From positions 725,764 to 789,763 of the forward strand of contig JAQTUX010000001.1 of assembly GCA_028707125.1 (NCBI GenBank): 64,000 nucleotides of DNA. The letters run 5' to 3'. Under the pieces are notes generated by a model. It was given only the letters and a program-made list of their open reading frames with translations. It was not told where the DNA came from and did no database searches. Below, piece by piece: positions 1 through 49,155 of this stretch. The translations under genes were made by a program, and so were the position numbers. The stretch's first letter is position 1. Each line of letters begins with the position of its first letter. The stretch comes from Candidatus Omnitrophota bacterium (GTDB taxonomy: Bacteria; Omnitrophota; Gorgyraeia; Gygaellales; JAQTUX01).

Positions 1-558
1 AAAGAGATCCTGGAAAAGGTAGTTTACCGCACCATAGACGGCCTGGTAAAAGAAGGCATAACCTATAAAGGTGTCTTGTACGCCGGTATTATGCTGACCA
101 AAGAGGGCCCTAAAACTTTAGAGTTTAACGCGCGTTTCGGCGATCCCGAGACACAGGCGATCTTGCCGCGTTTACAATCCGATCTGGTAGAGGTGATGCT
201 TGCGGTAAGCGAGCAGAAACTTTCCCGCCTGAAAATACTGGATTGGGACAGCCGCGCCTGCGTCTGCGTTGTCCTGGCCTCAGGCGGCTATCCGGGTAAT
301 TATGAAAAAGGCAGGGAGATCAGCGGGCTTGATGAGGCGGCTAAGGTTAAAGACGCGGTAGTGTTTCACGCCGGCACCAGGAAGGACAAGGACAGATTTT
401 ATACAAACGGCGGAAGGGTCATGGGCGTCACCGGGTTGGGGGAGGATATCAAAACAGCAATTGAACATACATATAGCGCGGTTGAGAAGATCAGTTTTGA
501 AGGCATGCATTATAGAAAAGATATAGGGTGGAGAGCGGTTAAAGGAGGGCAACATTAA
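1..558 (+). CDS. purD: Phosphoribosylamine--glycine ligase (GAR synthetase), C-terminal part; 5' end lies outside the window
   Basis: Frame 1 is open from nt 1 to the stop at 556-558. The translation EILEKVVYRTIDGLVKEGITYKGVLYAGIMLT...FNARFGDPETQ... matches the PurD ATP-grasp C-domain. Its stop overlaps the purE start (TAATG). Confidence 0.85.
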   Translation, partial: KEILEKVVYRTIDGLVKEGITYKGVLYAGIMLTKEGPKTLEFNARFGDPETQAILPRLQSDLVEVMLAVSEQKLSRLKILDWDSRACVCVVLASGGYPGNYEKGREISGLDEAAKVKDAVVFHAGTRKDKDRFYTNGGRVMGVTGLGEDIKTAIEHTYSAVEKISFEGMHYRKDIGWRAVKGGQH

Positions 559-1043
559 TGGCGAGTAAAGTCAGTGTCATAATGGGCAGCGCGTCTGATT
601 TAAGCGTTGTTAAGGCATGCACGGATATGCTCAAGGAGTTCGGTATAAGTTTTGAATTAAAGGTGTTGTCCGCGCACCGCACTCCGAAGGAGTTAGAGAA
701 GTATACGCGTAGCGCGGAAGGCCGCGGCATCAAACTGTTTATCGCGGCCGCGGGCGGTTCCGCGGCGCTTGCCGGAGTTATCGCTTCTTTCACCACGCTT
801 CCGGTCATCGGCATCCCCATCCCTACCAAAGCCCTTAAAGGATTGGATTCTTTGCTTTCCACCGTGCAGATGCCAAAGGGCGTTCCGGTGGCATCAATGG
901 CGATAGGCGAGGCAGGGGCTGGTAACGCCGGCATATTGGCCGCGCAGATCCTGGGTTTAAGCGATAAAAAGATAAAACAGAAACTAACCAGGCATAAGAA
1001 AAATATGGCGGCAAAGGTGCTGAAGATAAAAGTCAGATTATGA
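558..1043 (+). CDS. purE: N5-carboxyaminoimidazole ribonucleotide mutase
   Basis: 161 aa. VSVIMGSASDL...LSAHRTP...AGGSAALAGV...PVIGIPI are classic PurE motifs. The gene is translationally coupled to purD. Confidence 0.9.
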   Translation: MASKVSVIMGSASDLSVVKACTDMLKEFGISFELKVLSAHRTPKELEKYTRSAEGRGIKLFIAAAGGSAALAGVIASFTTLPVIGIPIPTKALKGLDSLLSTVQMPKGVPVASMAIGEAGAGNAGILAAQILGLSDKKIKQKLTRHKKNMAAKVLKIKVRL

Positions 1044-2098
1044 TTGAAACAGCATACGTAAGGATAAACGATGTTGTCCCGGACAGGAGCGTAATGCTTG
1101 ACGCCGTAAAAGCGCTTAAAAAAGGCGGCATCGTTGCCTTTCCCACTGAAACCGTATATGGCCTGGCGGCAGACAGCCGCAATAAAAAGGCGATAAGGCG
1201 GCTTTACGAGATAAAACAGAGGCCTGACTCAAAGCCGTTTTCCCTGCTCGTCGGCAGCAAGGACAGCGTGGATAAGTTTTCAAAATCCCCGCCGATGGCT
1301 GTTTACAAGCTTATGGCTAAATTCTGGCCGGGCCCGCTGACGATAGTCATGCCTTCCGGGAATTCAAAGGTGGGCTTGAGGATGCCGGACAACGTGGTCG
1401 CCTTGATGCTTATCAGCGAATCAGGCCTGGAGCTTGCCGCGCCGTCCGCGAATATCGCGGATAAAGCGCCTTGCCTTAGCGCCGACGAAGTGATGGAGCA
1501 GTTTAGCGGCAAGATAGATATAGTTTTAGACGGGGGAGAGGCCAAATTAGGCAGGGAGTCCACGGTTGTTGAAGTTGACGCCGCCAACAGCGTGACTGTT
1601 TTGCGGGAAGGCGCCATTAAGGCGGAGGATGCCGTCAAGGCGGCCAGGACCAAGACAGTGCTTTTGGTCTGTACAGGCAATACCTGCCGTTCTGTGATGG
1701 CGGAAGGCCTGCTTAAACAAAAGACAAAGGACAGGCTGTCTGTTGAAGTCGTCTCTGCCGGGATTTCAGCGCTTTCAGGCATGCCTGCTACGGCCGAGAC
1801 GCTTTCGCTGTTGAGCAAGGAAGGTATTGATATGTCCGGCCACAAGTCAAGGCGCGTTAGTATGGATATGCTTAAAAGCGCGGACCTCATACTCGTTATG
1901 GAGCGCATCCATAAGGAACGCATAAAGGAAATGGCGCCGGAAATAGAAAATAAAGTGTTTTTATTGAAAGAATTTGCTAAAATAAAGGACGGCAACAGCG
2001 ATATCAAAGATCCCATAGGCGGATCCATAGACACATATATGAATATTTTTTATATAATCAAGGATACAATAGAAAGGATAAGCAAAACAATACTATGA
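1040..2098 (+). CDS. Fusion of L-threonylcarbamoyladenylate synthase (Sua5/YrdC/TsaC domain, N-terminal ~190 aa) with a low-molecular-weight protein phosphatase (LMW-PTP/YwlE-like) domain
   Basis: The N-terminal half (GGIVAFPTETVYGLAADS...) is Sua5/YrdC-like. The C-terminal half carries the P-loop VLLVCTGNTCRSVMAEG (CX5R phosphatase motif). Gene order matches the Bacillus ywlC-ywlE-ywlF(rpiB)-glyA block. Confidence 0.8.
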   Translation: MIETAYVRINDVVPDRSVMLDAVKALKKGGIVAFPTETVYGLAADSRNKKAIRRLYEIKQRPDSKPFSLLVGSKDSVDKFSKSPPMAVYKLMAKFWPGPLTIVMPSGNSKVGLRMPDNVVALMLISESGLELAAPSANIADKAPCLSADEVMEQFSGKIDIVLDGGEAKLGRESTVVEVDAANSVTVLREGAIKAEDAVKAARTKTVLLVCTGNTCRSVMAEGLLKQKTKDRLSVEVVSAGISALSGMPATAETLSLLSKEGIDMSGHKSRRVSMDMLKSADLILVMERIHKERIKEMAPEIENKVFLLKEFAKIKDGNSDIKDPIGGSIDTYMNIFYIIKDTIERISKTIL

Positions 2099-2553
2099 AG
2101 ATAGTCATAGGCGCCGACCACGGCGGGTTTAAGTTGAAGGAGGAGCTCCTGCGTTTCCTGAAGAAGAAGGGCATCGAGGTTTCTGATTTCGGCACGTATT
2201 CCGAGGAATCCTGCGATTATCCCGAGATCTCATACAGAGTTGCCAGGGCCGTGTCTAAAAAGCAATACAACAGAGGTATCTTGATCTGTAAAAGCGGCAT
2301 AGGCAATTCCATCGTCGCCAACAAGGTGCGGGGCGTGAGGGCGGCATTGGCCTATAATTTGAAGGCGGCAGAATTTTCCCGCCGGCACAATGACGCCAAC
2401 GTGCTGGTGCTGGGGGCGTCGTTTGTCACCGGCGATACGGCAAAAAAGATAGTAGATGCCTGGTTGAATACGGAGTTTGAAGGCGGCAGGCACAGCCGCC
2501 GCGTCAGGCAGATATCGGCTATAGAGAAAAAAATTGACAGGAGGGTTGAGTGA
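2095..2553 (+). CDS. rpiB: Ribose-5-phosphate isomerase B
   Basis: 152 aa. [18 protein letters not shown]...[17 protein letters not shown] are RpiB/LacAB motifs. Confidence 0.9.
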
Positions 2554-3797
2554 AACACCACATACAGTCAGTTGACCCGGAGATTTACAAGGCGATAACC
2601 AGCGAGATCGAGCGCGAGGAGAAGACCATAGAACTCATCGCTTCGGAGAATTTCGCGCCTTTGGCAGTGCTTGAGGCGCAGGGTTCCGTGATGACCAATA
2701 AGTACGCCGAGGGCTATCCTGCCAGCCGCTGGTACGGCGGATGCGAGTTCGTTGACGACGCGGAGCGCCTTGCCATTGAGCGCGCCAAGGAGCTTTTCGG
2801 CGCGGAGCACGCCAACGTGCAGGCGCATTCGGGAACGCAGGCGAATATGGCGGTGTATTTTGCCGCGCTTGAGGTGGGAGATACGGTCATGGCTATGGAC
2901 CTTGCCTGCGGAGGCCACCTTTCCCACGGCCACCCGCACAATTTTTCCGGCAGGTTCTACAAGATCATTCCCTACGGCGTAAACAGGGAAACAGAGCGCA
3001 TTGATATGGATGAGATCCGCCTCCTTGCCAGGAGGCACAGGCCCAAGATGATACTGGTGGGCGCCTCCGCCTATTCGCGCGTATTTGACTTTAAGGAATT
3101 CAGGGACATATGTGATTCGGTTGGGGCGTATCTTTTTGTGGATATGGCTCATATTGCCGGCCTCATCGCGGCGGGGGTCCATCCCAGCCCGTTTCCCTAT
3201 GCTGATTTCGTAACTACTACCACGCATAAGACACTGCGCGGGCCCAGAGGCGGCGTTGTGTTCTGCCGCGGCCAGTTTGCCAAAAAAATTGACGGCTATG
3301 TATTTCCCGGCATACAGGGAGGGCCGCTTATGCACGTTATAGCGGCCAAGGCGATCGCCTTTAAACTCGCGGCGACGGAGGAATTCAAGGCATACCAGCG
3401 CCAGGTGGCAAAGAACGCCAAGGCGCTTGCCGAAGCAATGGCCTCTTTCGGCTACCGGCTGGTGTCGGGCGGTACCGATAATCATCTTGCGCTCGTGGAT
3501 CTGACGCCCAGGAAGGTATGCGGCAGGGACGCGCAGGTGGCGCTTGAGAAGGCCGGTATCACAGTGAATAAGAACCTCATACCTTATGACCGGTTAAGCC
3601 CCATGCTTACCAGCGGAATACGGCTGGGAGCTCCCGCGGTCACTACCAGGGGAATGAAGGAAAATGAAATGAAACAGATCGTTTCATTGATAAACGAAGC
3701 GATCCTGGCGAGGAGCGACGACGGTAAATTGGAGGATATCCGCGGAAGGGCATACGCCTTGACCGCCAGGTTCCCGATCTACCCCGAATTAAAATGA
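2550..3797 (+). CDS. glyA: Serine hydroxymethyltransferase (GTG start)
   Basis: 415 aa. [26 protein letters not shown] and the PLP-lysine region [14 protein letters not shown] are all present. Confidence 0.92.
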
Positions 3798-4243
3798 AAG
3801 ACAACCGCCCCGGATGGGATGAATACTTTATCGGTATTGCCAAGCTTGTGGCAAAGCGCTCTACGTGCCTGCGCAGGCAGGTGGGGGCTTTGATCGTCAA
3901 GGACAGGAGAATACTTGCCACCGGCTACAACGGCACACCCTCAGGCATCAAGCATTGTTTTGAAGCCGGCTGCCTCAGGGAGAAACTCAAGATACCTTCC
4001 GGCGAGCGCCATGAACTCTGCCGCGGGCTGCACGCCGAACAAAACGCGCTGCTTCAGGCCGCGCTCTACGGCATAAGCGTCAAGGACTCATCGTTCTACA
4101 TAACCAACCAGCCCTGCATCATCTGCGCCAAGATGCTTATAAACGCCGGAGTGAAAGAGGTCGTTATCTCCGACGGTTATCCGGATAAGATGTCGGCGGA
4201 ATTCCTCAAAGAGGCGGGGATAAGAGTCAGAAAGAAGAAGTGA
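3794..4243 (+). CDS. dCMP / cytidine deaminase family protein (ComEB-like)
   Basis: HAEQNAL...PCIICAKML are the zinc-binding CDA-fold motifs; 149 aa. Confidence 0.8.
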
Positions 4244-4713
4244 AGTGCCCTTTTTGCCATTATAGAGAAAGCAGTGTAGTTGATTCGCGCCCTACATCAG
4301 CCAACGCCGGGATCAGGCGCAGGCGCCAGTGCCTGAAATGCTCAAAGCGGTTCACCACTTACGAATACAACGAGGAGCTTCCCATGATGGTGGTGAAGAA
4401 AGACGGCCGGCGCCAGGCATTTGACAGAAAGAAGATCCTGAACGGCATAGTAAAGGCCTGCGAGAAAAGGCAGGTAAGTGTAAAGAAGATGGAGCAGATA
4501 GTAGCCGGCATAGAGCGGCATATCCATAAGAAGTTTGACCGCGAAGTCGGTTCTACCTACATAGGCGAGAAGGTAATGGAGCATTTGGCCGCGCTTGACG
4601 ATGTGGCCTACGTGCGCTTTGCCTCAGTGTACAGGCAGTTTAAGGACGTCAACCAATTCATGAAAGAGCTGAAAGACATGTTCAACAAGGGAAAGAAGAA
4701 GGCGCGGAGATGA
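4240..4713 (+). CDS. nrdR: Transcriptional repressor NrdR
   Basis: [17 protein letters not shown]...[12 protein letters not shown] is the N-terminal zinc ribbon, followed by an ATP-cone; 157 aa. Confidence 0.9.
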
Positions 4714-4717
4714 TCAT

Positions 4718-5122
4718 ATGATTGAAGTAGGGTTAAACAAGATAATAATAGACGAGAAAAGGCACGATCAGGTCATCGTGCTCAAAGAGAAGAAGGGCGA
4801 GCGGCTGCTGCCTATCGTCATAGGGTCCACGGAGGCATCCGCCATAAAGATGGAGGTAAGCGGTTTTACCCCGCCGCGGCCGTTGACGCACGATCTGCTG
4901 TTAAACACCATTACCGAACTTGATTCCCGCATAGATTATGTCCTTATAGACAAGCTGGAGCAGAGCACATACCACGCCAAGCTCTACCTGAAATATGACG
5001 GCAGGCAGAAGGTCGTGGATGCCAGGCCGTCGGACAGCATCGCCCTGGCAGTGCGCGCCAGGGCGCCGATCTTTGTGGAAGAGGATATATTTAAGCAGTC
5101 TAACCCGCTGAAGGAAAAATAG
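4718..5122 (+). CDS. Bifunctional nuclease family protein (DUF151/BFN domain)
   Basis: 134 aa. VIVLKEKKGERLLPIVIGSTEASAI...THDLL is the typical DUF151 signature. Confidence 0.65.
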   Translation: MIEVGLNKIIIDEKRHDQVIVLKEKKGERLLPIVIGSTEASAIKMEVSGFTPPRPLTHDLLLNTITELDSRIDYVLIDKLEQSTYHAKLYLKYDGRQKVVDARPSDSIALAVRARAPIFVEEDIFKQSNPLKEK

Positions 5123-5139
5123 GCGTTTTCCCGCCGCGT

Positions 5140-6588
5140 ATGCTTAGCACTTCACTAATAAAGAGCGACCCCCTCATAAAAAAGCTTATTCAGTATATTT
5201 CCCGGCAAAAAAGGCGGCCCGGGCTCTACATTGTGGGCGGTTTCCTCAGGGACATATTCCTCAAGCGCCGCAAAGACGTGGTGGATATTGACTTCGCGGT
5301 CGGCAGGAATGCCGTCGCCTTTGCCCGCGGCTTTGCCCGCCAGATCAAGGCGGGATTTGTGGTGCTGGATAAGGCGCGCGGCTGCGCCAGGGTCGTATAC
5401 AAGACAAAGCAAATGCACTATACCCTTGATTTTACCGATTTTCGCGGCAGGGACCTGAAGGATGATATGCTCCATCGCGACTTTACCATCAACGCCCTTG
5501 CCCTGGATGTGGCGCGGCTTAAGGCAGGCAGGCGGCTTGAGGACTGCGTAATTGATTTTCACGGCGGGCTCAAAGACATCAAGCTGAAAAAAATAAGGGC
5601 GGCATCAGAGTCATCTTTTAAAGATGATCCCTTGAGGGTATTAAGGGCGTTCAGCGCGAAGGCGATGTTCGGATTCAATATAGATAAACAGACCTTGAGA
5701 TCAGCGCTGAAAAGCAAAGAGAAATTAAGGGGCGTTTCTTATGAGCGTATAAGAGACGAGTTGTTCAAGATATTTGAAAGCGAGAACGCCTGCAAAACCA
5801 TAAAAGAACTGGATGATCTGAAGATACTTTATGTTGTCCTGCCTCAGTTAAGGGTCATGCGCGGGGTTGACCAGGGGCCGTATCACCATCTTGACGTCTG
5901 GGGGCATTCGTTGGAGGCGCTTAAACAGTTTGAGGCGCTGCTTAAGGAGATTAAACGCGACAAGAAGATAGGCCCATATCTCGGCACTATCCTCTCTCCC
6001 ACAAGGAGCCGGCTGGGTTTATTAAAGTTTGCCTGCCTTCTGCATGACATAGGCAAACCGGAAAGCCGCGTGCGCAGGGAAGGTAAGATCATATTCCACG
6101 GCCACGAGCGCTGCGCCCTGAAGATAGTCCGCGGGATCACGGAGATGTTGAAACTTTCGCAGGACGAGTATTACGCGTTGAAGAAGATCGTCTTCTGGCA
6201 TTTACGCCCCGGATACCTCGCGGATATAGAAACGCTCAGCGAGCGGGCAAGGTTCCGTTTCTTCAGGGATACGGCAGAGGAGGCGGTAAGCGTGCTTTTG
6301 CTCGCGATCGCCGACCAGCGCGCGACAAGAGGGCCGCTTACGGCGGGCGAGGACCGCAGGCATCACGAGAAGGTCTGCCTTGAGCTCGCGCGCGAGTTCT
6401 TCATCCGTAAGGGCCGGGAAAAGATCGTGCGGTTGATAGACGGAAATGACCTGATAAAGATATTAAAACTTACGCCTTCCCCGATTTTCAGTAAGATCCT
6501 GGACGAAGTAGAAGAGGCGCAGGCGGCCGGAGAGATAACAACAAAGAAACAGGCGCTGGCGCTGGCGCGTTCATTAGCTAAGATATGA
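5140..6588 (+). CDS. cca: CCA-adding tRNA nucleotidyltransferase with HD domain
   Basis: LYIVGGFLRDIFL...DIDFAV is the pol-beta-type NT head. A downstream HD motif (LLHDIGKP...HGHERCA) is present; 482 aa. Confidence 0.85.
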   Translation: MLSTSLIKSDPLIKKLIQYISRQKRRPGLYIVGGFLRDIFLKRRKDVVDIDFAVGRNAVAFARGFARQIKAGFVVLDKARGCARVVYKTKQMHYTLDFTDFRGRDLKDDMLHRDFTINALALDVARLKAGRRLEDCVIDFHGGLKDIKLKKIRAASESSFKDDPLRVLRAFSAKAMFGFNIDKQTLRSALKSKEKLRGVSYERIRDELFKIFESENACKTIKELDDLKILYVVLPQLRVMRGVDQGPYHHLDVWGHSLEALKQFEALLKEIKRDKKIGPYLGTILSPTRSRLGLLKFACLLHDIGKPESRVRREGKIIFHGHERCALKIVRGITEMLKLSQDEYYALKKIVFWHLRPGYLADIETLSERARFRFFRDTAEEAVSVLLLAIADQRATRGPLTAGEDRRHHEKVCLELAREFFIRKGREKIVRLIDGNDLIKILKLTPSPIFSKILDEVEEAQAAGEITTKKQALALARSLAKI

Positions 6589-16740: not shown

Positions 16741-17997
16741 ATGTTTATATTATACGATTTATTTTTTCTGTTTTTTGCGTTGATTTACCTGCCGTATTCT
16801 CTGGCGAAGCGCAAGATCAACGCGGGTATTTTTCAGCGGATGGGGTTTTTGCGGCTGAAACAAGCCCCTGGCGCGGGGCTGATATGGCTCCACGCTGTAA
16901 GCGTGGGTGAGGTAATGGCTATCAAGGCCTTTGTCCGTGATACAGGCAGGGAATTCAGCCGGAACAAGATCGTCATCTCAACGGTAACCACAACCGGCAA
17001 TAAGCTGGCGGTAAAATTATTCGGTAATAACGCGCAGATATTCTATTTGCCTTTTGACCTGAGTTTTATCATCAAGCGCGTAATAAGGCGGATCAAGCCG
17101 TGTTTATTTATCGCGGTTGAAACAGAGCTTTGGCCGAACCTTCTTTCTTATCTTAAACAAAGCGGGGTGCCGACAGCGATCGTGAACGGCCGTATTTCCG
17201 ACAGGTCATTCAAAGGTTATTACCGCATGAAATTTTTATTCAAGCCGATATTAAATAAGGTAAGCTTATTCTGCGTGCGTTCTGACCAGGACGCGAGGCG
17301 GCTGGTCCAGCTGGGAGTTGATGATAAAAAAGTCAAAATAACGGGCAATATGAAGTTTGACCTGGAGATCAGCGCGCATTCTCTGGATATCGGGCTTAAA
17401 AGCGATGAGAAACTGTTCGTCTGCGGCAGCACGCATCCGCGCGAAGAGGAGATACTGCTGGGCGTTTACAGGCAGGCGCGCAGGCAGTTTCCGGATTTGA
17501 GGCTTTTAGTCGCGCCGAGGCATATAGAACGGTGCGGCGAGATAGAGGGGCTGGCCAGGAAAATGGGGTTTGACGCCTTGAGGATCTCGCGGATAAAGGC
17601 GGGCTGTCCCGCGGGCAGGAACTGCGTATTTCTTCTGGATATCATAGGCGAGTTGCCGTCATTATATAATATGGCCGATGTTGTGTTCATAGGGGGCAGT
17701 TTGATCGAGCACGGCGGCCACAATATCATTGAGCCGGCATTTTTCGGCAAGCCGATCGTGTTCGGCAGGCATATGTCCAATTTCAGGGATATTGCCGAGA
17801 TGTTCCTCAAGGATGAAGCAGCGATACAGGTAAAGGATGAAGCTGGATTAGGAAACGCTCTTAAGGATATTCTGGGCAGAGAAGATGTCAGGCAAAAGTT
17901 AGGCAACAACGCCCGTTCAGTGGTTGAGAAGAACAGAGGCGCCGTAGCGCGGACAATAGAGGAGATTGGAAGGATATTGGAGTATACCCCACACTAA
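16741..17997 (+). CDS. waaA: 3-deoxy-D-manno-octulosonic acid (Kdo) transferase
   Basis: LIWLHAVSVGEVMAIKAF is a GT30 N-terminal motif; 418 aa. It begins the lipid A/Kdo cluster. Confidence 0.85.
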   Translation: MFILYDLFFLFFALIYLPYSLAKRKINAGIFQRMGFLRLKQAPGAGLIWLHAVSVGEVMAIKAFVRDTGREFSRNKIVISTVTTTGNKLAVKLFGNNAQIFYLPFDLSFIIKRVIRRIKPCLFIAVETELWPNLLSYLKQSGVPTAIVNGRISDRSFKGYYRMKFLFKPILNKVSLFCVRSDQDARRLVQLGVDDKKVKITGNMKFDLEISAHSLDIGLKSDEKLFVCGSTHPREEEILLGVYRQARRQFPDLRLLVAPRHIERCGEIEGLARKMGFDALRISRIKAGCPAGRNCVFLLDIIGELPSLYNMADVVFIGGSLIEHGGHNIIEPAFFGKPIVFGRHMSNFRDIAEMFLKDEAAIQVKDEAGLGNALKDILGREDVRQKLGNNARSVVEKNRGAVARTIEEIGRILEYTPH

Positions 17998-18006
17998 CGT
18001 GTGGGG
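17987..18006. repeat. Palindromic hairpin repeat, copy a (CCCCACAC-TAAC-GTGTGGGG), spanning the waaA stop and preceding the lpxK ATG
   Basis: A perfect 8-bp stem with a 4-nt loop; 19 of 20 nt are identical to the copies at 20999 and 26317. Confidence 0.75.
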
Positions 18007-20962: not shown

Positions 20963-20968
20963 TCAGAT

Positions 20969-21048
20969 TCTACACACGTAAGTGTGTAGAGCCGTGGACC
21001 CCACACTTACGTGTGGGGAATTAGGATACTACAGGCGTAAGCCTGTAG
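20969..21048. repeat. Triple-hairpin intergenic repeat: TCTACACAC-GTAA-GTGTGTAGA, CCCCACAC-TTAC-GTGTGGGG (copy b), CTACAGGC-GTAA-GCCTGTAG
   Basis: Three perfect 8-9-bp palindromes with GTAA/TTAC loops in 80 nt, directly upstream of the ATG at 21056. Confidence 0.8.
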
Positions 21049-21055
21049 AGGACAT

Positions 21056-26314: not shown

Positions 26315-26316
26315 GA

Positions 26317-26364
26317 CCCCACACTTACGTGTGGGGAATGGATACTACAGACGTAAGTCTGTAG
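26317..26364. repeat. Double-hairpin intergenic repeat: CCCCACAC-TTAC-GTGTGGGG (copy c) + AATGGATA + CTACAGAC-GTAA-GTCTGTAG
   Basis: Identical to copy b in the first hairpin. The second hairpin differs from copy b by a compensatory pair (GGC/GCC versus GAC/GTC). Confidence 0.8.
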
Positions 26365-34989: not shown

Positions 34990-35880
34990 GTGAAAAAACA
35001 GATCAAGAAGATAGACGCCACAAAGATGGAAGTGCATATTGAGGCGGGCGCCGATGTGGTAGCCGGTAAATTCAACGAGGTTTACGAAAAGATCTCAAAA
35101 GAGGCGAAGGTCAAGGGTTTCAGGCCGGGCAAGGTGCCGCGCGATATCCTGGAAAAACATTATTCATCTCATGCCCATCAACAGGTAGTCAACGAGCTTG
35201 TTCCGGATCTATTGAAGAAGGCGGCGGATGAAGACAAGATTAATATAGTAAGCGTCCTCAATGTCAGCGACGTCAATTTAAGCGGCGCGAATATTTCCTT
35301 TAAGGCGGATGTTGAGGTTGAGCCGGAGGTCAAGCTCGGCGAATATAAGGGCATTAAGGTCAAATGGGAAGAAGTAAAGATCGGCAAGGATGACGTCAAA
35401 AGGTATATAGAGGCGCTGAAGGAAAAGGGCGGGCTGGAAGTCCCCGGCGAAGGGCTCGCGCGCGCTCTCGGCTACCCCAGTAATGAGCAGATGGAGGAGT
35501 CGGTGCGCATGCAGTTGTATCTTCAAAAAGAAAATCAGATAAGGTCGGGCATAGAGCAGAAGATAATAGACGAGCTTCTAAAGAGTTCTTCCTTAAGCGT
35601 CCCGCAGAGTTTATTGGCCAGGCGCCTTGATGAGCTTGCCTCCGACGCCAAGATGCAGCTTGCGATGAGGGGTTTTACCAAGGAGCAGATCGAGGGCAAG
35701 GACGAAGATTTGAAGAAGGAACTCAAGGCAAATGCCGAAACGCAGGTGAAGATATACCTTATATTCAAAAGTATAGCGCAGAAAGAGAATATAACCGTAG
35801 ACAATCAGGTGACTCAGAAGGTGATGGAGTTCTTGCTTAAGGCCGCCGACTGGGATGTCCCGTCGAGGATAATAACATAA
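34990..35880 (+). CDS. tig: Trigger factor lacking the PPIase (FKBP) domain (GTG start)
   Basis: The ribosome-binding signature GFRPGKVPRDILEKHY and the tig-clpP gene order are present. At 296 aa it is too short to contain the central PPIase domain. Confidence 0.7.
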   Translation: MKKQIKKIDATKMEVHIEAGADVVAGKFNEVYEKISKEAKVKGFRPGKVPRDILEKHYSSHAHQQVVNELVPDLLKKAADEDKINIVSVLNVSDVNLSGANISFKADVEVEPEVKLGEYKGIKVKWEEVKIGKDDVKRYIEALKEKGGLEVPGEGLARALGYPSNEQMEESVRMQLYLQKENQIRSGIEQKIIDELLKSSSLSVPQSLLARRLDELASDAKMQLAMRGFTKEQIEGKDEDLKKELKANAETQVKIYLIFKSIAQKENITVDNQVTQKVMEFLLKAADWDVPSRIIT

Positions 35881-35886
35881 CTGACT

Positions 35887-35904
35887 CCACACTTACGTGT
35901 GGGG
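35887..35904. repeat. Palindromic hairpin repeat, copy d (CCACAC-TTAC-GTGTGG, flanked by GG), upstream of clpP
   Basis: The same loop and stem core as copies a-c, followed by the same GGGGAATnG tail. Confidence 0.65.
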
Positions 35905-35922
35905 AATTGGAGAGGAGGATAT

Positions 35923-36531
35923 ATGCAGGGGACACACGGACAAATTCTGGTACCAATGGTTATCGAACAGAACCCGAGGGGTTTTGAACGCGCCTACGAT
36001 ATCTATTCCCGCCTTCTTAAGGACAGGATAATATTCATCGGCACGATCATTGATGATAATGTGGCCAATCTTATCATAGCCCAGATGTTGTTTTTACAGA
36101 TGGAGGATACAAGCAAGGAGATCAGTATATACATAAATTCTCCGGGCGGCTCGGTAACAAGCGGCCTTGCCATTTACGATACGATGCAATTTTTAAAGCC
36201 GGACGTGGCCACTTATTGCGTGGGCCAGGCCTCCAGCATGGGGGCGATGCTTCTGGCGGCGGGTGTTAAGGGCAAACGTTACGCCCTGCCCCATTCGCGC
36301 GTGATGATACATCAGCCCTGGGGAGGCGTGCAGGGCCAGGCGTCGGACATATCCATTCACGCCAAGGAGATCCTCAGCTTGAAAGATAAGATAAATCAGA
36401 TACTTTCCAGCCATACGGGCCAGCCGCTGGAAAAGATCGAGAAGGATACGGATAGAGATTATTTTATGTCTTCCGATGAGGCAAAAAAATACGGCCTTAT
36501 CGATGAGGTGATCACACATAAAAAGAAATGA
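35923..36531 (+). CDS. clpP: ATP-dependent Clp protease proteolytic subunit
   Basis: [30 protein letters not shown] plus the catalytic GQASSMGA...H...D are present. GGAGAGGAGG is the RBS. The ATG at 35923 is preferred over 35899, which starts inside the repeat. Confidence 0.9.
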
Positions 36532-36537
36532 TAATTA

Positions 36538-36670
36538 AAACACTAAACCCTAAACACTAAACTCTAAACAAACTCAAAATACAAAACACAAAACAGCAAG
36601 TAAGTTTTGACATTTGAGTTTGGGGTTTTGGGTTTATTTAGGGTTTAGGATTTAGAGTTTAGGGTTTGGA
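36538..36670. repeat. Imperfect inverted repeat built from about 8+9 heptamer units: (CACTAAA/CCCTAAA...)n on the left arm and (TTTAGGG/GTTTTGG...)n on the right arm
   Basis: The left arm is almost purely A/C and the right arm almost purely G/T. 7-nt periodicity is visible by eye, and the arms are largely complementary. The repeat lies between clpP and the aminotransferase gene. Confidence 0.7.
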
Positions 36671-36685
36671 AAGGAGAATTTATTT

Positions 36686-37822
36686 ATGAGGAAGAGATAC
36701 TTATTAACACCGGGGCCTACGCCCATTCCGCCGAACGTGCTTGAGGCCGAAGCCAGGCCGATCATACACCACAGGACTCCGCAGTTTCAGGGGATACTGA
36801 AGGAAGCGGAGGATGGCCTGAAGTATGTTTTTCAGACAAAGAACGACGTATTCATCCTTGCTTCATCAGGCACGGGCGCGATGGAGGCGGCAGTGGTTAA
36901 CCTGCTTTCTGCCGGCGACAGCGCCATTACGATCGAAAGCGGAAAGTTCGGGGAAAGATGGACCGAGCTTTGCGCCGCTTACGGCGTAAACGCGCAGGTG
37001 ATCAAGGTGCAGGACGGCAAGGCAGTTGAGCCGAATGTTGTCAAGGAGGCCCTTAAATCCAACCCCGGGATCAAGGCGGTGTTTTCCACGCTTTGCGAGA
37101 CATCCACAGGCGTCACTAATGACATCAAGGCGCTGGGCGAGATCGTAAAAGGTACCGACGCGGTTTTAGTGGTTGACGCCATAAGCGGCCTGGGGGCGGT
37201 TGACCTCAAAACCGATGAGTGGTCGGTTGACGTCGTTGTGGCCGGTTCGCAAAAGGGGCTGATGCTTGCGCCGGGGCTGGGCTTCATCAGCGTAAGCGAG
37301 AAGGCGGGCAAGCGCGTTAAGGAAACAAAGTCCCCCCGTTATTACTTTGATTTAAATAAGGCGAAGAAGGCGCTTGATAAGACCGATACGCCTTTTACTC
37401 CGGCGATATCGCTGATCATCGCTTTGAACGAGAGCCTGAAAATGATAAAGCAGGACGGGCTGGAGGAGGTTTTCAAGAAGCACAAGCGGCTCGCGGATGC
37501 CGCCAGGGCGGCTGTCAAGGCGCTTGGCCTGGGGCTGCTTGCGCCTGATGCCGCCTCTGACGCGGTCACGGCCGTAAAGGTGCCTGCGGGCATAGAAGGA
37601 GAAAAGCTGGTCAAGACCATGCGGGATACTTACGGGGTCACCATTGCCGGAGGCCAGGGAGAATTAAAGGGGAAGATCTTCAGGATAGCCCATATGGGCT
37701 TCATAGAGGAGTTTGATATCATTGTCGGTATCGCCTGTTTGGAAAAGGTATTGAACCAGATGGGCTATAAATTTCAGTTAGGGGCCGGTGTCAGGGCGGC
37801 GCAGGAAGTCTTTTTAAAATAG
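36686..37822 (+). CDS. Class V aminotransferase (serine-glyoxylate / phosphoserine aminotransferase family), putative SerC
   Basis: LLTPGPTPIPPNVLEA...SSGTGAMEA... and PLP-lysine context are present. It is adjacent to serA. Confidence 0.75.
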   Translation: MRKRYLLTPGPTPIPPNVLEAEARPIIHHRTPQFQGILKEAEDGLKYVFQTKNDVFILASSGTGAMEAAVVNLLSAGDSAITIESGKFGERWTELCAAYGVNAQVIKVQDGKAVEPNVVKEALKSNPGIKAVFSTLCETSTGVTNDIKALGEIVKGTDAVLVVDAISGLGAVDLKTDEWSVDVVVAGSQKGLMLAPGLGFISVSEKAGKRVKETKSPRYYFDLNKAKKALDKTDTPFTPAISLIIALNESLKMIKQDGLEEVFKKHKRLADAARAAVKALGLGLLAPDAASDAVTAVKVPAGIEGEKLVKTMRDTYGVTIAGGQGELKGKIFRIAHMGFIEEFDIIVGIACLEKVLNQMGYKFQLGAGVRAAQEVFLK

Positions 37823-37825
37823 TTG

Positions 37826-37955
37826 TCGGTAACGGTCCGGGTTACGGTCATGTATCGGTTACGTGTAACGGTTTGGGTTACGTATTTATAACGATAGACG
37901 TAACCGAATGCCGTTACCGTTACGTAGCCGTAACCCTAACCGACAGACGTAACCT
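37826..37955. repeat. Heptamer-based inverted-repeat array: about 6 GGTTACG-like units followed by about 6 CGTAACC-like units
   Basis: Examples: CGGTAACGG (37828) pairs with CCGTTACCG (37911), and GGGTTACGG (37839) pairs with CCGTAACCC (37928). Further GTTACG/CGTAAC units fill the 145-nt spacer between the aminotransferase stop and the serA start. Confidence 0.7.
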
Positions 37956-37967
37956 AAGAGGGGAAAA

Positions 37968-39554
37968 ATGATTAAAATACTGGTCAGCGACCCTTTATCC
38001 GAAGAGGGTTTGAAGATCTTGAGGGATGTTAAAGAATTCAAGGTCGAAGTAAAGTGTGAACTTAAGAAAGAGGAATTGCTCAAGATCATAAAGGACTACC
38101 ATGCCTTGATAGTGAGGAGCGCCACTAAAGTCACGGCGGATGTTATTAAGGAGGCGTCAAACCTTAAAGTCATAGGCAGGGCAGGCGTGGGCCTGGATAA
38201 CGTGGACCTGGAAGCGGCCACGAGCAAGGGCATTATCGTCATGAATACGCCGGGCGGCAATACCATTTCCACCGCCGAGCACACAGTGAGTATGATGCTC
38301 GCGCTTTCCAGGAACATACCACGCGCCAATACCTCAATGAAAGCGGGCGAATGGAAGCGCTCCAAATTCATGGGCAGCGAACTCTATGGGAAGACCTTAG
38401 GCGTAGTGGGGCTGGGCAGGATCGGTTCGGAAGTCGCAAAGCGCGCGGCGTCCTTCGGCATGAAGATAATAGCTTATGACCCGTTCCTTACGCAGAAGGT
38501 CGCCGAACAGATAGGCGTTAAGGTGGTCGAGCTTAAGGAAGTCATCAAGTCCGCCGATTACATAACCGTGCATACGCCGCTTACCGACGATACCAGGCAC
38601 ATGCTTTCTGATAAAGAGTTCGCGATGATGAAGAAGGGCGTTAAGGTCATAAATTGCGCCAGGGGAGGCATAATTGATGAGGCGGCCCTGGCAAAGGCGA
38701 TCAAGGAAGGGAAAGTGGCGGGGGCTGCCATAGACGTATTCGAAAAGGAGCCGCCGGAGGCGTCAAACGAGCTCCTGAGGTTAGACGCGGTTGTGGCAAC
38801 GCCTCATTTAGGCGCTTCCACCGAAGAGGCGCAGGTCAATGTCGCCATTGAGGTGGCAGAAGTTGTGCGCGACGCCCTTCTTGGCAAAGGCATAAGGAAT
38901 GCCGCCAACTATCCCTGTATTGACGAGCAGGCCTGTAAGATCCTTGATCCCTACATCGGCCTTTCGGAAAAGATCGGGCTTCTTGCCGGCCAGTTGATCG
39001 AGGGCCGGCTCGTGGAAGTGAATATAATTTACAGCGGCGAAATAGTGCAGCTTGACTCCACGGGGCTGACCCTGGCCTTAATGAAAGGCGTATTAACCCC
39101 TATGCTGCAGGATACGGTAAATTTTATAAACGCCTTGAGCCTGTCCAGAGAAAGGGGCATTAAGGTCAGCGAATCAAAGATCTCAAAAGAGAGCGAGTTC
39201 GTTAACTTTATTTCGGTTGATATCAAGACAGACAAGCAGGTATGCAGGATCGCCGGCACCTTATCCGCCAACAGGCAGCCGCGTATCGTAAAGATAAATG
39301 AGTTTTACGTGGAGATCATTCCCGCGGGGCACCTGCTGGTCATAAATAACTGGGATAGGCCCGGCATAATCGGCAACCTGGGTACGCTTCTGGGCGAGCA
39401 CAAGATAAATATAGCCGGGATGTCCTTCGGCAGGGTCAAGCAGGGAGGAGAGGCCATAACCGTGCTGAATGTTGACAGCGCCCTCCCCCAAAATGTCCTG
39501 GAGAAGATCAGAAAGGCAAAGAACATCCTTTCCGTGAAGACCATCAAATTATAG
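37968..39554 (+). CDS. serA: D-3-phosphoglycerate dehydrogenase with C-terminal ACT domain
   Basis: The NAD-binding GVVGLGRIGSEVAKRA, the catalytic R/E/H region and a C-terminal ACT domain are present; 528 aa. Confidence 0.9.
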   Translation: MIKILVSDPLSEEGLKILRDVKEFKVEVKCELKKEELLKIIKDYHALIVRSATKVTADVIKEASNLKVIGRAGVGLDNVDLEAATSKGIIVMNTPGGNTISTAEHTVSMMLALSRNIPRANTSMKAGEWKRSKFMGSELYGKTLGVVGLGRIGSEVAKRAASFGMKIIAYDPFLTQKVAEQIGVKVVELKEVIKSADYITVHTPLTDDTRHMLSDKEFAMMKKGVKVINCARGGIIDEAALAKAIKEGKVAGAAIDVFEKEPPEASNELLRLDAVVATPHLGASTEEAQVNVAIEVAEVVRDALLGKGIRNAANYPCIDEQACKILDPYIGLSEKIGLLAGQLIEGRLVEVNIIYSGEIVQLDSTGLTLALMKGVLTPMLQDTVNFINALSLSRERGIKVSESKISKESEFVNFISVDIKTDKQVCRIAGTLSANRQPRIVKINEFYVEIIPAGHLLVINNWDRPGIIGNLGTLLGEHKINIAGMSFGRVKQGGEAITVLNVDSALPQNVLEKIRKAKNILSVKTIKL

Positions 39555-48852: not shown

Positions 48853-48905
48853 GAACTAAAATAGTTCTTCAATAGAGTAAACTAATTTTATCTGAGGGAG
48901 TTAAA

Positions 48906-49136
48906 ATGATTAAAAAAAGGAAAATTGAAATAACGGTTACAGTAACATTTTTAACAGCCTTAGGTTTAATCTTTTTTTATGGATTCAAATATTTTGCAGG
49001 ATTCAAATATGCTTCACTACTTGATCAACAAATCATTTCTATCTTAGGAATAATTTTTGTTTTATGTTTGTTATATTTTGTTTATAGGTTTTTAGAGTGG
49101 TTTATTAGAAGAATAAAATCTTTATTTAACAGATGA
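48906..49136 (+). CDS. Small two-TM membrane protein; candidate cognate immunity protein for the RHS C-terminal toxin
   Basis: A 76-aa AT-rich ORF immediately 3' of the RHS gene, with two hydrophobic helices. The call rests on position, not homology. Confidence 0.4.
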   Translation: MIKKRKIEITVTVTFLTALGLIFFYGFKYFAGFKYASLLDQQIISILGIIFVLCLLYFVYRFLEWFIRRIKSLFNR

Positions 49137-49155
49137 CAAGGACCGGGATAGAAAT

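Follow-up and report, generated by a model that had tools for sequence, protein, structure and literature searches.

Probable inserted hairpin elements of intervening-sequence type in the two spacers flanking an aminotransferase gene of an Omnitrophota bacterium

We analyzed a 64-kb stretch of DNA (the window) from an Omnitrophota metagenome-assembled genome (MAG), a compact stretch with almost all of its long open reading frames (ORFs) on the + strand, and focused on two hairpin-forming elements in the spacers on either side of a class-V aminotransferase gene. The locus comprises tig (trigger factor; 34990-35880) and, on the + strand, clpP directly downstream of it (35899..36531; PF00574 CLP_protease, E 1.3e-86; TGA stop codon at 36529-36531), the aminotransferase gene (36686..37822; PF00266, E 5.9e-34) and serA for D-3-phosphoglycerate dehydrogenase (37968..39554; PF02826, PF00389, PF19304 and ACT domains). 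The aminotransferase, called serC in the initial annotation of this DNA, is 100% identical to the NCBI entry 'alanine--glyoxylate aminotransferase family protein' from a Candidatus Omnitrophica MAG, and serA is the neighbour of its gene in almost every one of 80 related genomes. The clpP-aminotransferase spacer (36532-36685, 154 nt) holds the upstream element, UP (36535..36670, +), and the aminotransferase-serA spacer (37823-37967, 145 nt) holds the downstream element, DN (37825..37948, +). Both hairpins begin 3-12 nt past the stop codon and finish 2-9 nt ahead of the next Shine-Dalgarno sequence, which is AGGAG for the aminotransferase gene (36672..36676, +; just 3' of the UP hairpin and unpaired in its minimum free energy (MFE) structure) and GAGGGG for serA (37958..37963, +; 3' of the DN hairpin). 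The Shine-Dalgarno sequence is unpaired in both, and the distance from the stem end to the next start codon is 16-19 nt for UP and DN. Scans of the whole window returned no Rfam matches at gathering thresholds, no tRNAs and no rRNA.

Each spacer folded into one long imperfect hairpin, as the initial annotation had supposed. As RNA, UP formed a hairpin of 48 pairs at 36543-36669 with an MFE of -46.6 kcal/mol (z-score -7.2), and DN formed one with its main stem at 37825-37948 and an MFE of -59.7 kcal/mol (z-score -4.3); shuffled sequences as stable as the native one numbered 0 of 200 in either case. Folding as DNA gave -23.5 to -31.3 kcal/mol (z-scores -3.5 to -6.3) for both strands of both spacers. 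The heptad build ascribed to UP was also borne out. The 5' arm (36543..36600, +) consists of A/C-rich degenerate heptads, (NCTAAAC)n, followed by CAAACTCAAAATACAAAACACAAAAC, and the 3' arm (36606..36669, +) is the G/T-rich complement (..GTTTAGGGTTTAGGATTTAGAGTTTAGGGTTTGG); identity at a lag of 7 was 0.73 in the 5' arm and 0.64 in the 3' arm, values reached by none of 500 dinucleotide shuffles, and Tandem Repeats Finder (TRF) reported period 7 in both arms.

DN, an orphan that we designated family B, had likewise been described as built from heptamers, and here the description failed. The 9-nt complements quoted for it are present in the sequence; its best period was 6, with identities of 0.47 and 0.51 that were reached by 46 and 6 of 500 shuffles (marginal significance), TRF found no array in DN, and exact GGTTACG copies recur at distances of 17 and 19 nt. 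A more fitting description of DN is a GTTACG/CGTAAC core that recurs, irregularly spaced, with both orientations present in each arm. Its 11 core hexamers within 125 nt form the only such cluster in the 1.42 Mb of DNA examined. When further arrays of either unit were sought, CTAAACNCTAAAC proved confined to UP within the 64 kb (7 matches versus 0.17 expected), and 6 of the 11 window matches to GGTTACG fell in DN.

To place these hairpins in context, we compared the locus with its relatives. The clpP-aminotransferase-serA synteny is kept in 80 related Omnitrophota loci, in which the spacers are mostly 10-40 nt long. In the two closest relatives found (aminotransferase protein 79% identical), the clpP-aminotransferase spacers measure 14 and 22 nt, the aminotransferase-serA spacer of one of them measures 35 nt, and these spacers hold little beyond the ribosome-binding site. 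As these spacers of the closest relatives do not exceed 14-35 nt, the UP and DN hairpins are insertions, probably secondary ones into an ancestrally compact tig-clpP-aminotransferase-serA string. These data also bear on whether the hairpins are transcription terminators or attenuators that separate three transcription units. Their high stability and their position directly after stop codons are what such an explanation would predict; however, the sequences after the two stems, GGAAAGGAG and ACGTAACCTAAGAGGGG, contain no U-tract, a promoter and terminator scan found no sigma-70-like promoter and no intrinsic terminator in either spacer, and neither within the hairpins nor in the 16-19 nt between stem and start codon is there a promoter-like site. 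Spacers of 10-35 nt in the relatives would, moreover, leave no room for separate promoters, and we therefore consider this function highly unlikely.

Expanded spacers were observed in about 25 of the syntenic loci, and many of those also contain long hairpins. Of 119 co-directional spacers surveyed, each 50 nt or longer, 38 held a hairpin with at least 20 matched pairs, and 16 of these 38 Omnitrophota hairpins had periodic arms (period 6-9, mostly 7). The units of the periodic hairpins all differ (AAGCTGT, TAGCGnn, AGGTTCT, AGAGAAC, AGTGTCAG and others), and some recur within or between genomes, as do AAGCTGT, three times in L074, and TAGCGnn in L050 and L057. Since 38 of the 119 surveyed spacers hold hairpins with differing units, we concluded that the clpP-aminotransferase and aminotransferase-serA spacers are general landing places for hairpin elements in Omnitrophota. 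Two further families were noted in Omnitrophota spacers. One is a recurrent hairpin with a GGGAC(G/A)... stem (e.g. AGGGACGGTTCT...AGAACCGTCCCT), located in the clpP-aminotransferase or aminotransferase-serA spacers of other Omnitrophota (L212 4141-4242; L072 1215-1326; L074 3890-4000; L033 3237-3294; L022 1625-1737). The other is a conserved structured element that starts GTGAGGnCATAAGTTATGG...CATAACTTAT..GTCCGAACTYA and continues into more hairpins; it matches no Rfam family, does not occur in the window, and lies in spacers of several Omnitrophota genomes (L003 2275-2485, L013 2270-2492, L023 601-855, L042 8596-8757, L047 2246-2431, L050 3793-4000).

UP has numerous relatives at other loci. 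The 19-mer CTAAACTCTAAACAAACTC (36557-36575) was found in at least 120 metagenome contigs, and in 0 viral contigs in a scan of such contigs; the matching loci share the whole element and not only the 19-mer. We termed this group family A and built a profile hidden Markov model (HMM) from 19 independent metagenomic copies, none of them from the window. With nhmmer the profile matched UP with scores of 104 on the + strand and 97.5 on the - strand, at E 1e-32 over profile positions 10-150 of 158 and at E 2e-30 in a scan of the whole window; against DN it gave no match at E<=10. The profile identified 145 distinct copies in the DNA examined, exactly one of them in the window, and at 19 loci two to three copies lay within 15 kb. 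In a 30-copy alignment UP aligned heptad by heptad with the 29 other copies. The relative L077 carries a close homolog of UP (profile E 6e-35) in the other of the two spacers, that between the aminotransferase gene and serA, and shares an exact 23-mer with the window though the proteins are only 74% identical. The 65 mapped copies were all intergenic, usually 0-60 nt from the flanking ORFs. Placing the family A contigs taxonomically by homology to Omnitrophota proteins was uninformative. UP is one member of a family whose copies occupy over 100 unrelated intergenic sites in different phyla and also lie within 23S rRNA genes. Separately, a small palindrome, CCCTGCCTRCCGGCAGGCAGG, was observed nested in or abutting family A copies at L089, L093, L155, L182 and L200, a nesting that resembles the small dispersed repeats described for cyanobacteria.

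The initial annotation had read the two arrays as one paired design, a device dedicated to the cis-regulation or insulation of the aminotransferase gene, such as an attenuator, an mRNA leader or trailer, or a set of sites for a heptad-recognising protein. The two hairpins do bracket one gene, each placed exactly between a stop codon and the next ribosome-binding site, and in family A the arm sequences are conserved (rather than their pairing through covariation), mismatches included (e.g. CGAAA opposite TTTAG), which could reflect recognition by a protein. Against such a device, the hairpins are absent from the closest relatives and from most of the 80 syntenic genomes, and the family of UP occurs at its many unrelated sites, in rRNA, and in the opposite spacer of L077. 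In addition, UP and DN are unrelated in sequence, and unrelated hairpin families fill these spacers elsewhere. This reading thus has a very low probability in our judgment, and because UP and DN are unrelated in sequence, they represent two independent insertions rather than paired arrays of one design.

Family A also bears on a G-quadruplex or telomere-like structural DNA element, which exact CCCTAAA and TTTAGGG units and the G-rich arm of UP had brought to mind. Four G-runs of at least 3 are indeed present in UP (at 36622, 36630, 36641 and 36662), but no (G3+N1-7)x4 motif was found on either strand of either spacer, nor any with loops of up to 12 nt, and the G-rich arm is sequestered in the stable -46.6 kcal/mol hairpin. 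Because the first base of the family unit, NCTAAAC, varies, the likeness to telomeric repeats is coincidental, and we regard a structural element of this kind as extremely unlikely.

We then addressed the origin of the short elements through the longer copies of the family. Full-length family A copies consist of a 5' heptad arm ending in CAAACTCAA, an ATG, an ORF of 119-120 aa, a stop codon and a 3' arm, and the two arms pair with each other. Seven full- or near-full-length copies were found (L085, L101, L124, L149, L151, L189 and L194; 457-539 nt where measured), and the ORF matches PF05635, '23S rRNA-intervening sequence protein' (E 4e-13), and TIGR02436, 'four helix bundle protein' (E 2e-19). 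The majority of family A copies are 97-260 nt long, a few are 321-371 nt, and the longest are those of 457-539 nt. When ORF remnants were sought by fuzzy DNA matching, C-terminal coding DNA was retained in nine short or intermediate copies (166-324 nt), and both N- and C-terminal remnants in five. Because the short and intermediate copies keep such remnants, the short forms are internal-deletion derivatives. UP itself has no ORF and, at the fuzzy-matching thresholds used, no recognisable N- or C-terminal coding remnant, and it represents a minimal form of the family. Close homologs of the cargo protein are very numerous (at least 8000 candidates); the named ones come from Thermodesulfobacteriota/Deltaproteobacteria MAGs, and the copies in the window and in L077 belong to Omnitrophota. 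Family A therefore crosses phyla, since cargo homologs occur in Thermodesulfobacteriota/Deltaproteobacteria and short copies in Omnitrophota.

A deletion series from an ORF-bearing form, together with multi-copy dispersal, intergenic placement, both orientations and a long hairpin when transcribed, is also what classical miniature inverted-repeat transposable elements (MITEs) would produce, that is, internally deleted DNA transposons that are mobilised by a transposase in trans, like Correia or ERIC elements. However, the sole cargo of family A is a 120-aa four-helix-bundle protein without a transposase domain; a target-site duplication is not definable, as the termini TAAAC...GTTTA are inseparable from a TA or TTAA duplication; and insertion in sense orientation at the apical loops of rRNA helices is the pattern of intervening sequences (IVSs). 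Hence, we consider a classical MITE an unlikely, though not negligible, identity for these elements.

IVSs in 23S rRNA have been known since 1990 and classically occupy helices 9, 25 and 45. In L084 (metagenome contig Ga0265294_10006583, ~470-6140), the 23S rRNA gene carries several insertions that lengthen it to ~5.7 kb (LSU_rRNA_bacteria of Rfam, 861 bits over the part examined). At LSU model position 583/584, the helix-25 site known for Salmonella IVSs, a family A copy stands in place of the helix's apical loop, in the sense orientation of the rRNA, and another copy is situated between E. coli positions 1163 and 1223, in the helix-45 area. In L169, a family A copy interrupts the 23S rRNA at model position ~283, and a second hairpin of 127 nt with other heptads (AATTTCG / ATTCAAA) interrupts it at ~160-169. 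Because family A occupies 23S rRNA genes, including the helix-25 IVS site, we propose that this family is of IVS type and, in addition, colonises the spacers that separate protein genes. Two structural details were noted in these genes: one of the L084 copies carries a nested small palindrome, CCGGCTTCGCCGGATCTGGCGAAGCCGG, and an identical pair of small hairpins with tetraloops, CCAGTGC-TTCG-GCACTGG and CCACTGC-GGAG-GCAGTGG, flanks each of the two heptad hairpins of L169 (224-381 and 494-620).

The best-described counterpart is the 23S IVS of Coxiella, which contains an S23p ORF and a stem of terminal inverted repeats, is excised by RNase III, and carries GACAGAT heptamers just upstream of the ATG whose number varies between strains (PMC4990558). 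Excision by RNase III has been shown for the Coxiella, Salmonella and Leptospira IVSs, and the origin and mobility of IVSs and the role of the S23p/four-helix-bundle protein are still described as unclear (PMC4990558). Because PF05635 is related to Avd of diversity-generating retroelements (PMC10053308), a role of the four-helix-bundle protein in nucleic-acid binding or retro-mobility is conceivable.

Variation within one population was consistent with slippage in the heptad arms. Nine otherwise identical contigs of a Crystal Geyser population (L213-L221) carry 4, 5 or 6 CCTAAAC units in the 5' arm of a family A copy and an invariant 3' arm, which indicated that slippage adds and removes heptads in family A. 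On 24 contigs with an identical cargo protein, a single insertion context was found, from one population. In the same L213-L221 contigs (1985-2846), the gene after a response regulator is called from 2696 (434 aa) or from 2846 (384 aa) depending on the contig; the locus length does not change, which points to a point difference affecting the start or the reading frame.

Slippage of this kind raises the question of whether the hairpins, above all DN, are locally grown neutral DNA that arose by slippage and palindrome formation and has neither mobility nor function. Heptanucleotides are the commonest long simple repeats in prokaryotes according to Mrazek 2007, in the form in which PMC4679880 cites that work; the 16 periodic spacer hairpins have many different units; DN has no relatives in the 1.42 Mb; and across the 38 spacer hairpins the wobble pairs show no strand asymmetry. 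For UP, local growth is excluded by homology to the more than 100 copies elsewhere. For DN, it poorly explains ~60-nt complementary arms that each carry the core in both orientations, and the recurring units of L074, L050 and L057 suggest families rather than one-off growth. A loose resemblance was seen in the clpP-aminotransferase spacer of L036, whose array shares an 11-mer with DN, and two scans of viral contigs for DN gave 0 matches and 9 chance matches. DN shares with UP its architecture and placement (a long imperfect stem between stop codon and ribosome-binding site), not its sequence. Because a heptad hairpin with a different unit co-occurs with family A in one rRNA gene (L169), we favoured the view that DN belongs to the same class through a family not yet sampled; a palindrome grown in place is the alternative for DN, and local growth as a general account is improbable.

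On the combined evidence, we propose that both spacers hold inserted, hairpin-forming selfish elements, UP being a non-autonomous IVS-type miniature and DN an element of the same architecture and unrelated sequence; we assign this interpretation a probability of roughly two in three. The most apt name for UP and DN is IVS-type (IVS-like) hairpin elements of operon spacers, with MITE-like behaviour comparable to that of Correia or ERIC elements. In a complete family A form, the arms, (NCTAAAC)n and its complement, pair into a stem of ~45-60 bp. The hairpins would be co-transcribed in a tig-clpP-aminotransferase-serA transcript, as suggested by the absence of promoters and terminators from the spacers and by the tight packing of the genes in relatives. 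RNase III probably cuts the imperfect duplexes of ~45-50 bp in the manner shown for rRNA IVSs; the polycistronic mRNA would then be severed on either side of the aminotransferase cistron, each new end carrying half a stem, with the downstream ribosome-binding sites remaining outside the stems. Any effect on expression would then be a by-product tolerated by the host and not dedicated regulation.

Several points weigh against this proposal. Co-transcription and RNase III cleavage are steps that we infer by analogy. Neither a target-site duplication nor a transposase was identified, and the mobility of family A is deduced from its distribution. Between co-directional genes, 30 copies lie in sense and 13 in antisense, so that both orientations occur. 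No four-helix-bundle gene was found by tblastn or an iterated HMM in the 64-kb window or in L001-L080, a search in which the iterated HMM drifted onto translated arm sequence; consequently, any autonomous partner in this genome is hypothetical. For DN, blastn-short and the family A profile returned no relatives, and its assignment to the class of UP draws on architecture and context. Tests for selection on RNA structure also gave no support: sense and antisense MFE did not differ significantly (21:15, p=0.15), covariation in the family A stem did not exceed that of shuffles (30 copies, structure derived column-wise), sense-strand G-U pairs showed no clear excess over A-C mismatches (69 versus 50 cells), and with unbiased alignment of the arms of the 38 Omnitrophota hairpins, sense G-U and antisense G-U were nearly equal (77 versus 75).

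The remaining structural tests concern the pairing itself. In the 30-copy alignment, 89.7% of cells of the 44-pair stem of family A were paired in register, compared with at most 55% in slid registers. RNAalifold on the MAFFT alignment of these 30 copies did not recover the stem. The pairing is thus real and explained by conservation of both arm sequences, through recent spread or sequence recognition; because there was neither excess covariation nor a G-U excess, we saw no sign of selection on RNA pairing as such.

Other repeats were noted in the window. REP-like perfect hairpins of 20 nt, CCCCACAC-TTAC-GTGTGGGG, occur in 4 copies in the 64 kb versus 0 expected (17987-18006, 20999-21018, 26317-26336 and 35885-35904; see also 20963-21055 and 26315-26364); they share one orientation throughout and lie in short spacers between co-directional genes, one of them between tig and clpP. 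At 20963-21055, three small hairpins with loops GTAA, TTAC and GTAA stand in series. The biggest spacer of the window (48853-49155; 303 nt, 25% GC) follows a 1278-aa ORF and includes short stretches that look like ORFs, as well as an imperfect inverted repeat that is AT-rich.

For the annotation of the window, both arrays would be repeat or mobile-element remnants rather than regulators of serine biosynthesis. They are nevertheless of more interest than ordinary low complexity, because they connect IVSs, the large family of four-helix-bundle proteins and bacterial heptamer repeats. One sequence family is found in three settings, namely as an rRNA IVS at a canonical site, as an ORF-bearing intergenic cassette, and as ORF-less miniatures that are abundant in operon spacers of at least two phyla. 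These settings tie the phenomena together and make mobility approachable through filled and empty sites in metagenomic populations. Family A also gives a definite origin to some of the tandem heptanucleotide arrays of bacteria that have lacked an explanation, and it predicts that RNase III cuts the compact operons of Omnitrophota and other uncultivated lineages into pieces where hairpins have been inserted. On a wider scale, and as a tentative proposal that we hold to be possible rather than probable as a whole, IVSs and the very large PF05635/TIGR02436 family may constitute one unrecognised class of mobile hairpin elements. Such a class may insert into transcribed non-coding positions generally (rRNA helix tips and operon spacers), cross phyla and spawn ORF-less miniatures resembling MITEs; its heptad arms may serve as cis sites for an Avd-like pentameric protein or for a partner enzyme such as a reverse transcriptase; and the unrelated heptad hairpins in Omnitrophota spacers, including DN, may be further families of it. 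Our literature search, which was incomplete and did not fully cover older sources such as the Leptospira IVS papers, found no account of four-helix-bundle/IVS-type hairpins or of their miniatures in mRNA spacers.

Among other known systems, integron attC sites, retrons, CRISPR and type III toxin-antitoxin repeats were rejected, as the gene order is conserved, the cores are unlike GTTRRRY, and no reverse transcriptase or cas gene is adjacent. The closest known systems are the 23S IVSs with an S23p ORF (Leptospira, Coxiella burnetii, Xanthomonas and Brucella) and the ORF-less helix-25/45 IVSs of Salmonella. In common with these, UP and DN have complementary termini in a long stem, full-length family A copies enclose a PF05635 gene, and homologous family A copies lie at the 23S helix-25 site and in the helix-45 area. 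As in Coxiella, the stem of family A has heptamers just upstream of the ATG and is polymorphic in their copy number, and the ORFs decay and are deleted (family A here; IVSs in PMC4990558). Unlike rRNA IVSs, the copies of the window and most family A copies lie between protein genes, most family A copies are ORF-less and 97-260 nt long, and both orientations occur.

A second likeness is to the Correia elements of Neisseria, the ERIC/IRU of enterobacteria and the palindromic repeats of Yersinia and Stenotrophomonas, which are imperfect palindromes of 100-170 nt in operon spacers that form long RNA hairpins. Repeats of the Correia/ERIC/IRU type are co-transcribed in operons, as UP and DN probably are; RNase III cleaves Correia elements, and ERIC elements influence the stability of mRNA. 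Family A differs from Correia and ERIC in that its arms consist of degenerate heptads, its parent encodes a four-helix-bundle protein instead of a transposase, it also occurs inside rRNA, and no TA target duplication is demonstrable. REP/BIME elements, which can stabilise upstream mRNA, are likewise extragenic palindromes between co-directional operon genes; REPs, however, measure 20-40 nt and are mobilised by RAYT transposases, whereas UP and DN measure 125 nt and have repetitive arms. Finally, the 7-nt unit, the intergenic position, the sporadic phylogenetic distribution and the slippage-type change in copy number recall bacterial tandem heptanucleotide repeats, among them the STRR of cyanobacteria, the TAACTGA repeats of Beggiatoaceae, the heptanucleotide elements of Geobacter and long simple sequence repeats. 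Those repeats have been described as direct arrays, whereas in family A an array and its inverted complement form a stem, within an element that has a cargo gene.

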